Source: a virus
Lineage: Monodnaviria; Loebvirae; Hofneiviricota; Faserviricetes; Tubulavirales
Strand: one strand, 5' to 3'
Length of the DNA stretch: 4,423 nt
IMG/VR virus record: IMGVR_UViG_2693429642_000019
Position 1 is the stretch's first letter, and each line of letters begins with the position of its first letter. The position numbers were made by a program, and so were the translations under genes. Below, in pieces: positions 3,279 to 4,423 of the stretch. Below the pieces are notes generated by a model. That model searched no databases. It was given only the letters and a program-made list of their open reading frames with translations, and was not told the origin of the DNA.

Positions 3279-4423
3279 TTGATTCACTTTATTATTCCGC
3301 TTCTGTTTTTGTTCTTTTCCTCGTTTTCTTTCGCTGAAGAGAAAGAAAATCCGGATGCACTTGTTCAGTGTGCAGGCCATTCATCCTGCAGGACAGATTA
3401 TTCGGACGCGGGGACGTCGATTAAATTAGCCAGGGCGGCCGGTCATCTTTTCTGTGGTTCGGGCAGTTATGACGCATGTTCCGGAATAATTCATTATTGT
3501 GGTGTGCCACTTTCAACGCCTGTTAATGCACCTTCGACTGTCGGGTCTTTTGTCCGTGCCCGGTGGTCAGCATATAAAGTCTGGGATTCAGACAAGCAAA
3601 AGTGGACAGCCTGCACCCTTGCTTTTCAGGGTGGTGAGGGGGATTTGACACCTGAATATAATAAGCCGCCAACTGACGAGATTTGTCTTTCTCGTCCGGT
3701 TCTTGATGGTATGACTTTTTCTGATGTTTATAAAGGTGATGACGGGACCCGTTATGTTAATGTGCAGGGGTGTATTTATGAGGCAACCGGTAATCCTCTT
3801 ATTTGTAATCCCGATGATGATACAGTTTGTACTGCCGACTGGAAACCAGTTGCTGTAGATCCTGCATTCTCCGATGGTAAGGAGGATGGCGGTAGCTCAG
3901 GTGGTGGCAGTTCCGGTGGTGGTAACCCAGGCGGCGGCAGTTCCGGTGGTGGTTCAGGTTCTGGCTCCGGTGGTTCATCCGGTAGCGGTGGCTCCGGCTC
4001 GGGTTCCGGCGGCTCATCCGGCAGTGGTGGTTCAGGTTCTGGCTCCGGTGGTTCATCCGGTAGCGGTGGCTCCGGCTCGGGTTCCGGCGGCTCATCCGGC
4101 AGTGGTGGTTCAGGTTCTGGCTCCGGTGGTTCATCCGGTAGCGGTGGCTCCGGCTCGGGCTCCGGCGGTTCATCCGGTAGCGGTAGTTCAGGTTCAGGAT
4201 CCGGTGGCTCATCCGGCGATGACAATGGCTGGCTTGATGGTATTTTGGGCTGGTTAAAAACAATATGGGTGTCAGTGAATGATTTAAATAATGCTTTTTC
4301 TGTTTCTCAGGCTGATATGAATAATGCATTAAATTCACTGGACAATGGTATTAAAGATATTAGTCAGAATATAGCTTCTTCTTTGCCTGATGGGGATTTC
4401 CCTTTAGGGGAGCTTTCGCATTA
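3279..4423 (+). CDS. pIII-like adsorption / minor coat protein, 3'-truncated by the window end (at least 381 codons); TTG start
   Basis: Open frame with no stop from 3222 to the window end, translated by hand. SD AGGAG (3266-3270) lies 8 nt before TTG 3279. Signal peptide MIHFIIPLLFLFFSSFSFA, then a Cys-rich N-terminal region (10 Cys), a roughly 109-aa Gly/Ser linker (3891-4217), and the beginning of a C-terminal domain (DDNGWLDGILGWLKTIW...). Not in the ORF track because of the non-ATG start and missing stop. Confidence 0.8.
   Translation, partial: MIHFIIPLLFLFFSSFSFAEEKENPDALVQCAGHSSCRTDYSDAGTSIKLARAAGHLFCGSGSYDACSGIIHYCGVPLSTPVNAPSTVGSFVRARWSAYKVWDSDKQKWTACTLAFQGGEGDLTPEYNKPPTDEICLSRPVLDGMTFSDVYKGDDGTRYVNVQGCIYEATGNPLICNPDDDTVCTADWKPVAVDPAFSDGKEDGGSSGGGSSGGGNPGGGSSGGGSGSGSGGSSGSGGSGSGSGGSSGSGGSGSGSGGSSGSGGSGSGSGGSSGSGGSGSGSGGSSGSGGSGSGSGGSSGSGSSGSGSGGSSGDDNGWLDGILGWLKTIWVSVNDLNNAFSVSQADMNNALNSLDNGIKDISQNIASSLPDGDFPLGELSH
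3951..4184. repeat. Three tandem copies of a 78-bp unit (two 39-bp half-units) encoding the repeated peptide GSGSGSGGSSGSG inside the pIII-like gene
   Basis: Unit GGTTCAGGTTCTGGCTCCGGTGGTTCATCCGGTAGCGGTGGCTCCGGCTCGGGTTCCGGCGGCTCATCCGGCAGTGGT starts at 3951, 4029 and 4107. Copies 1 and 2 are identical; copy 3 has a few synonymous differences. Confidence 0.85.

Follow-up and report, generated by a model that had tools for sequence, protein, structure and literature searches.

The DNA analysed here, a 4,423-nucleotide stretch held in IMG/VR as virus record IMGVR_UViG_2693429642_000019 and called the window below, is part of an integrative filamentous (inovirus) prophage of Escherichia coli. At its downstream end lies a gene for a pIII/g3p-like adsorption protein (minor coat protein), recognised by Pfam, tblastn and gene order, which begins with a TTG start codon at 3279, is read on the plus strand and runs off the window end at 4423. 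The gene contains a Gly/Ser linker of 110 amino acids (aa 204-313; 3888..4217, plus strand), delimited by translation and modelled without structure, whose DNA has a G+C content of 67%, compared with 49% in the rest of the window. Most of this linker is encoded by a tandem array. We interpret the array as an in-frame variable-number tandem repeat (VNTR) that encodes the flexible Gly/Ser tether of this prophage's pIII-type adsorption protein, and we place the probability of this interpretation at roughly 0.85.

Tandem Repeats Finder (TRF) locates the array at 3946-4216, with a period of 78 bp, 3.5 copies, 95% matches and a score of 486; a period of 39 bp also fits (6.9 copies, 78% matches). Direct comparison and translation reveal three head-to-tail 78-bp units on the plus strand, at 3951..4028, 4029..4106 and 4107..4184. 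The second unit shows no mismatch to the first, and the third differs from both by four synonymous third-position changes. The exact self-match at an offset of 78 extends over 136 bp (3946-4081), which is beyond what chance produces. The basic unit, however, is 39 bp long and encodes the 13-aa peptide GSGSGSGGSSGSG; two versions with synonymous codons, A and B, occur and differ at 9 of 39 positions. One A followed by one B (in the third unit, by a variant B') makes up the higher-order unit of 78 bp, and all three of these are translated in the pIII frame as GSGSGSGGSSGSGGSGSGSGGSSGSG. The array is closed by a degenerate 39-bp unit, A'' (SSGSGSGGSSGDD; 4185..4223, plus strand), with 10 mismatches to A, so that the complete order is A-B-A-B-A-B'-A'', seven 39-bp units at 3951-4223. 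The initial annotation had described three 78-bp units at 3951-4184, two of them identical; the positions and the identity hold, but the array is longer than that, reaching 4223. It had also proposed a recent duplication, with which the identity of units 1 and 2 agrees, as does the nearest relative (99.6% identical apart from the indel), which stands one 78-bp unit away. Upstream of the array, the linker begins with a remnant of a different, 5-aa type (GGSSG GGSSG GGNPG GGSSG G; 3888..3950, plus strand), detected by TRF with a period of 15/30 at 3887-3953.

The pattern of differences between units identifies the frame in which the array is translated. Versions A and B differ only at third codon positions of the pIII frame (nine differences), and so do units 1 and 3 (four differences); none of these 13 changes alters the pIII peptide, whereas in every other frame they change residues. 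A random spread over the three codon positions would place 13 of 13 at position 3 with a probability of (1/3)^13. Because the linker is built of GGN, TCN and AGY codons, four of the six frames over it contain no stop codon. Three long open reading frames (ORFs) overlap the array: one rich in Pro/Glu (3776..4225, minus strand), one rich in Arg/His/Asn (3799..4338, minus strand) and one rich in Ala/Val (3874..4257, plus strand). They lie where they had been reported and had already been described as spurious; the stop-free frames together with the codon-position test lead to the same conclusion, that all three are by-products of the linker. That one of them, for example the antisense Pro/Glu-rich ORF, is a real gene has hardly any chance of being true. 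Such ORFs are long (127-179 aa), and an equivalent antisense ORF is annotated by RefSeq as protein WP_062865521.1 in one relative, L028. Nevertheless, their extents follow the array, their existence is accounted for by the codons just named, no frame but that of pIII runs on into the conserved N- and C-terminal domains, and in L028 the intact pIII ORF was simply left unannotated. A coding role for these alternative-frame ORFs was rejected on the basis of the codon-position test.

The annotation of L028 (strain 2015C-4136CT1) illustrates how such a locus may be recorded. There, WP_062865521.1 (3377-3940, minus strand) is the antisense Pro/Glu-rich by-product of the pIII linker, and RefSeq breaks the pIII gene itself (about 2841-4427, plus strand) into a pseudogene and a C-terminal fragment, although the frame is open throughout. 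The linker of this pIII is about 170 aa long and comprises about 18 GGSSGGSTS repeats.

The protein itself was identified by several approaches. The ORF from 3279 to the window end has a RefSeq coding sequence as its counterpart in the relative L001 and matches the Pfam family PF05357 (Phage_Coat_A) with E=5.3e-9 and 36.2 bits, against a cut-off of 20.8. With tblastn, aa 122-195 match gene III of phages IKe, I2-2 and If1 at 41-44% identity, and a phmmer search against the PDB matched aa 132-195 to 1TOL (7.8e-13) and 4EO1 (1.4e-12), as well as to 2G3P, 1G3P and 2X9A. These residues (3672..3863, plus strand) form an N1-like (TolA-binding) domain directly upstream of the linker, as also supported by AlphaFold and Foldseek: its predicted fold resembles the N1 domain of If1 g3p (2X9B/2X9A) with a template-modelling (TM) score of 0.88, a root-mean-square deviation of 1.4-1.5 Å and 41-43% identity. 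In the AlphaFold2 model of pIII, which was built on 20 homologues, residues from about 40 to 200 are confident, and the N1-like part reaches a predicted local distance difference test (pLDDT) value of 85-93. Residues 199-316 are modelled without secondary structure at a pLDDT of about 30, and the Gly/Ser linker is therefore predicted to be disordered.

The regions at both ends of the protein complete this layout. A signal peptide is predicted from the translation at aa 1-19 (LIHFIIPLLFLFFSSFSFA; 3279..3335, plus strand), with cleavage before EEKEN; the N-terminus is hydrophobic, ends in SFA followed by EE, is kept in the homologue alignment, and its residues 5-16 are modelled as a helix. The C-terminal (presumably virion-anchoring) domain begins with DDNGWLDGILGWLKTIW at 4218..4423 (plus strand), where the window is 100% identical to pIII of the L002 type, and residues 317-368 are modelled as helices with low confidence. 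The full-length pIII is 451 aa long in the nearest relative, L001, which has one 78-bp unit fewer than the window; it ends in YAIYMITMLRVFVISRRTLFEREVKL, a hydrophobic stretch followed by basic residues. Given the Pfam and gene III matches, the N1 fold match and the layout of the model, the protein is a pIII/g3p-type adsorption protein composed of a signal peptide, an N-terminal domain, an N1-like domain, a single Gly/Ser tether and a C-terminal domain. The earlier statement that the repeats encode the pIII linker is borne out by these matches, by the gene III position and by the predicted disorder.

The domain that precedes N1 was also observed more closely. It corresponds to window positions 3342-3650 (aa ~22-125), is modelled mostly as beta strands at a pLDDT of 70-87, and occurs in at least two allele groups that are about 83% identical to each other. 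In the fold search, no convincing PDB match was found for this domain; N1 alone was matched. It is a candidate for the domain that binds the primary receptor.

Copy-number polymorphism of the array is evident among relatives. Version A was sought as an exact pattern in IMG/VR and in JGI metagenome contigs; 14 contigs contain it, each with 1-6 copies at 78-bp spacing. These contigs and 12 E. coli chromosomal loci were decomposed unit by unit, with L013 left out of the counts since it shows a frame disruption and ends inside the array. Sequences of the window's own lineage have the N-terminal module, the 5-aa remnant and the C-terminal module in common. Within this lineage, L001, L015 and L020 carry A B A B' A'' (5 units, 264 nt), L019 carries A B A B' B' A'' (6 units, 303 nt), the window carries A B A B A B' A'' (7 units as assembled, 342 nt), and L018 carries A B A B' B' B' B' A' B' B' A'' (11 units, 498 nt). 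In L017, (A B)x5 A B' B' is followed by further sequence up to the contig end inside the array, giving at least 13 units and at least 582 nt. The flanks of these six relatives are 99.5-100% identical to those of the window (597-600 of 600 positions upstream and 194 of 194 downstream, the downstream flank of L017 being missing), and the window differs from L001 by 17 substitutions and exactly one 78-bp unit. Variation in linker length between isolates, which the initial annotation had considered probable, is thus confirmed, and the related genomes do not share one repeat number.

A sister lineage, which has a different N1-like allele and the same repeat, contains 2-6 units in shuffled orders, including B A B A B' A'', A B A B A A'' and B A A B A A''. 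These orders and lengths indicate changes in steps of 39 bp as well as 78 bp. The expectation of gain and loss in whole in-frame units therefore holds with respect to the frame, and the step is not restricted to 78 bp: all complete arrays are multiples of 3, and pIII is kept in frame. On a wider scale, a search of 5.8 billion proteins yielded 96 homologue clusters, of which the named ones all come from E. coli and 95 could be measured. Where the linker is made of GGGSS/GGGNS pentapeptides, its length lies between about 10 and 116 aa and mostly changes by 5 aa at a time. Repeats of no fewer than three unrelated families (with units of 5, 9 and 13 aa) are found at this position in related pIII genes, and every one of these families varies in number.

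Several points weigh against the proposed interpretation. No sequence homology between the C-terminal domain of pIII and that of Ff g3p was detected, the match to 8B3O being confined to N1. The count of seven units is that of the window as assembled, and this exact allele is present in no other sequence compared. Many of the comparison sequences (IMG/VR, metagenome and Logan contigs) are drafts and probably short-read assemblies, in which identical 78-bp units can be miscounted, and 3 of the 14 contigs with the repeat (L013, L017 and L023) end inside the array, which thus behaves like an assembly breakpoint. Moreover, tandem prophage copies within one genome (L001, L005 and L009) carry identical arrays, so change cannot be extremely fast.

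Some of these points bear directly on the possibility that the three-copy count in the window is an artefact of assembly (expansion or mis-join) and that the true number is two 78-bp units, as in the nearest relatives. The identical tract of about 214 bp (3946-4159) exceeds many short reads, and the three closest relatives each have one unit fewer, which, along with the solitary allele and the broken contigs, would fit such an error. On the other hand, the window has more copies than its nearest relatives, whereas the usual error of short-read assemblers is to collapse tandem repeats; 5, 6, 11 and at least 13 units are seen in independent sequences from this lineage; and the order of units differs among assemblies of the sister lineage that are complete or at chromosome level. 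We consider an artefact in the window improbable, and the variation is real for the locus even if this single count is not.

Besides varying in length, the array is situated within a gene of mosaic structure. Window positions 3279-3700 are closest to the L006 type (97.6%), with other relatives at about 83%. Positions 3701-3950, which include the N1-like domain and the 5-aa remnant, are closest to L005, L007, L008, L010 and L011 (96% and 92-95%), and no similarity to this segment was detected in L002, L006 or L009; the figure of 92-95% is the identity of the remnant (3888-3950) to the GGGSS-type linker starts of the same five loci. Positions 4218-4423 are closest to the L002 type (100%), as compared with 79-93% for the L005 group. 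The nearest partner thus switches at about 3700 and again at about 3952-3963. Matches of the L005 type stop at 3952, and the match of the L002 type is taken up again at 3963; hence the nearest relative changes where the remnant meets the 13-aa array. Judged from these alignments, the array lies at a recombination joint inside a mosaic pIII gene. We infer that the linker is a permissive site for module exchange, because an in-frame crossover inside a Gly/Ser linker yields a functional protein.

The N1-like region was also compared between loci. Window 3701-3887 and L002 13512-13755 are two alleles without detectable similarity at the DNA level; both keep the Cys pattern of g3p N1, and they recombine independently of the flanking parts of pIII.

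A mechanism can be proposed for these features. By analogy with Ff g3p, the tether would run from the N-terminal domains, one for receptor binding and the N1-like one for TolA binding, to the C-terminal domain, which would hold the protein in the virion tip. By the same analogy, it would give the N-terminal domains freedom of movement with respect to the virion tip (PMC10175506, PMC12477597). Adjacent units differ little or not at all, so that whole units may be gained or lost by slipped-strand mispairing in replication or by unequal homologous recombination; the partners in the latter case could be units, tandem prophage copies or replicative forms. Every such change would remain in frame, in multiples of 39 bp, and would alter the length of the tether and never switch the protein off. 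A phase-variable contingency locus of the on/off type was considered and rejected, as 39-bp units are multiples of 3 and allow no frameshift. Variation in tether length is probably nearly neutral over a wide range of permitted lengths, and the low-complexity stretch may double as a permissive crossover point. In the window, a remnant of the 5-aa type is fused in frame to an array of the 13-aa type, joining the N-terminal module of one lineage to the C-terminal module of another.

A different view is that tether length is under diversifying or adaptive selection, the locus acting as a contingency-type element through which reach or infection efficiency would be adjusted to the envelope of the host (O-antigen, capsule or receptor geometry). 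The five array lengths found among seven sequences with flanks differing by 0.5% or less would be in line with this, and so would the variation in number of all three or more unrelated repeat families at one position, and the strict conservation of peptide composition while codons drift. A functional role has reportedly been assigned to the distal linker of Ff g3p by Nilsson et al. in 2000 (J Virol 74:4229). However, mutation pressure alone also predicts a high diversity of alleles, and in GGN and TCN codons any change at the third position is necessarily synonymous. In addition, the one experiment cited on this matter, as relayed in PMC7307601 from Bruno & Bradbury 1997, found that the naturally longer Gly-rich region of IKe gave no selective advantage. 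Selection of this kind is regarded as unlikely.

A broader version of the same idea would treat the Gly/Ser array as a selected evolvability module, a hypermutable length dial combined with a frame-tolerant crossover site, and not as a passive spacer; we find this equally doubtful. If it were true, the length dial would fit the reach of the tether to differing host envelopes, receptor-binding and virion-anchoring modules would be swapped at the array between co-resident prophages, and the linker of the window, with its 5-aa remnant and 13-aa array, would be the scar of such an exchange. We favour the VNTR interpretation, with a tether whose length is nearly neutral.

The genomic surroundings of the gene are those of a filamentous prophage. 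A megablast search against complete E. coli genomes found the window in 40 chromosomes, the best match being L001 in E. coli strain 100416 from Gambia (99.5% identity over the full 4,423 bases, 78 bp shorter). The gene order in L001 starts with a small divergent ORF, rep, a 141-aa ORF at the gene V position, two small hydrophobic ORFs and the major coat gene, followed by pIII, a 119-aa pVI-like ORF, a Zot-domain protein (pI) and a GspD-type secretin (pIV). The position of pIII between the major-coat gene and the pVI/Zot/secretin genes is seen in the annotation of L001 and 11 further loci. In the window, a Phage_GPA-type replication endonuclease is encoded at 187-2187 (Pfam PF05840, E=8e-49). 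The 141-aa ORF at the position of gene V, which encodes the single-stranded DNA-binding protein, lies at 2218-2643; it belongs to no Pfam family, and its sole match is PHROG 30648 (E=1e-95), whose function is unassigned. The ORF at 2976-3218 (80 aa) is major-coat-like according to the annotation of L001. Between it and pIII, as in Ff phages, there is a terminator-like hairpin with a T-run (3234..3260, plus strand), consisting of a 7-bp stem with 6 G-C pairs and a TTTTTTAATCA tail.

The region between the divergent small ORF and rep (82-161) contains a 16-bp direct repeat, GCAAAATTGCACTTGT, present in 2.2 copies at 82-116 according to TRF, and further palindromic copies resembling TTGCACAATTGCAC. 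These repeats are candidate operator or origin sites. A scan of the window against Rfam at the gathering threshold gave no match.

With regard to integration and distribution, the prophage unit in L001 is present in tandem with a period of 8,739 bp and adjoins hipA, and in L006 and L028 the prophage array ends at a dif site that has one mismatch. This type of pIII was found in 23 of 5,426 complete E. coli genomes, mostly from human stool isolates, and the O18:K1:H7 reference strains UTI89, RS218 and IHE3034 are absent among these 23. With megablast, the complete window matched none of 50,697 phage records; at the protein level, the phage records matched only through the N1 domain of IKe, If1, I2-2 and PEar phages and through Rep of the fs2/VFJ/CTXφ type. 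A pIII-alignment scan of the species-representative genomes of GTDB revealed no relative. In a cluster look-up, P0024 and P0086 were singletons, and the pIII proteins of L001 and L002 were absent from that collection. Some prophage copies look defective: in L003 (13338-14504), pIII is frameshifted in its N-terminal part, and in L012 (14871-15290), the prophage is truncated within the Zot gene, next to a truncated dinG. Strain E100341 (NZ_CM128606.1) harbours two members of the prophage family, at 2413212-2414521 and 3165233-3169448, which offers an opportunity for the inferred recombination between pIII modules.

A separate observation concerns relatives that are not located at dif. In these, a gene for an IS110-family transposase ends 2 nt before rep and replaces window positions 1-189. 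Such relatives were found at three chromosomal sites: hcxB/ybiB (L002, at about 8849-18361, L003, L004, L007 and L012), yoaA/yoaB (L010) and hcaR/hcaE (L011). The element is roughly 9.5 kb long and includes the transposase, the phage genes and a DUF2726 gene; its ends are conserved, starting with TGGTGTGTTTG on the left and finishing with CATAGTTGCTGTT on the right. A short segment of its 180-nt leader differs between sites (GATAACTCCGA versus GTCTCCCCCAA), and each version matches the chromosomal flank at the left junction, which ends in GGTTAACTCC or in T[A/T]CCCCC. On sequence grounds, this match between leader segment and flank looks like what is expected of a bridge-RNA target guide matched to each of the three insertion sites, and the element looks like an inovirus that integrates by means of an RNA-guided IS110 recombinase. 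In a text search, no publication turned up that connects bridge RNA or IS110 with filamentous phages of E. coli. Outside the repeat finding, this arrangement is the most interesting thing seen in the material.

The finding on the repeats has mainly practical consequences. The length of gene III is unreliable as a lineage marker, short-read assemblies may miscount units or break at the array, and automatic annotation can call an antisense by-product and miss pIII, as RefSeq did in one relative. The linker also marks where receptor-binding modules swap between phages, which is relevant to the prediction of host range and to the engineering of chimeric g3p. A known property of the g3p linkers of Ff-, IKe- and UPΦ-type phages is thereby extended to a rare and little-described group of E. 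coli prophages, known chiefly from human diarrhoeal isolates; the interest of this extension is modest, and it opens no new question.

Among known systems, the closest functional parallel is provided by the G1 and G2 linkers of g3p in Ff phages (M13/fd/f1), which likewise form a flexible, disordered, Gly/Ser-rich tether between the infection domains and the virion-anchored C-terminal (CT) domain. The linker of the window follows directly after the N1/TolA-binding domain, like G1 after N1 in Ff (1TOL alignment; PMC10175506). The domain order of Ff g3p is N1-G1-N2-G2-CT (PMC10175506), whereas the pIII of the window has an extra domain before N1 and no N2 between the linker and CT. Furthermore, it contains one linker of 110 aa where Ff g3p contains two, and its unit is 13 aa long in contrast to the EGGGS or GGGS units of Ff.

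The same phenomenon was described in natural isolates for the UPΦ prophages, which also infect Enterobacterales hosts and form dif-integrated tandem prophages (PMC7307601). No gene of these prophages varies more than g3p, of which 95 variants occur in 229 genomes (Shapiro & Putonti 2020, PMC7307601), and most of this variation lies in the number of Gly-rich repeats that link the N- and C-terminal domains (PMC7307601). The same paper, citing Bruno & Bradbury 1997, relates that the Gly-rich region of IKe diversifies in the laboratory with no fitness effect. The repeat motif of UPΦ g3p is GGGES and differs from the 39/78-bp repeat of the window; moreover, the structural genes of UPΦ are IKe/I2-2-like (about 70% aa identity), while the pIII of the window shares only N1 with IKe, at about 40-44% identity. 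Membership of the structural module in UPΦ was rejected, because the match to gene III of IKe/I2-2 is confined to aa 122-195 at 41-44% and the repeat motif is different. The module comprising rep and the gene V-position ORF is about 88% identical in DNA to prophage L027, which, from a reading of its annotation, looks UPΦ-like. L027 carries an accessory gene annotated as a TolA C-terminal-domain protein (7422-7787 and 16338-16703, both minus strand). Since N1 of pIII binds domain III of TolA, this protein could be a decoy for superinfection exclusion.

Similarity to YpfΦ of Yersinia pestis (YPO2271-2281 in strain CO92) and CUS-1 of E. coli O18:K1:H7 can be seen at the level of size, module order and tandem integration at dif, in a comparison of layouts: these phages share a layout of ~8.7 kb with a regulator and genes for replication, morphogenesis, Zot and secretin (PMC4266046). 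With in-frame VNTRs of bacterial and phage surface proteins, a length polymorphism of the minisatellite type, the array has in common head-to-tail, near-identical units whose length is a multiple of 3, and a copy number that differs between near-identical strains while the frame is kept. Polymorphism in the number of g3p-linker repeats has thus already been published, and the window is a further example of it, with a new unit of 39/78 bp and 13 aa.

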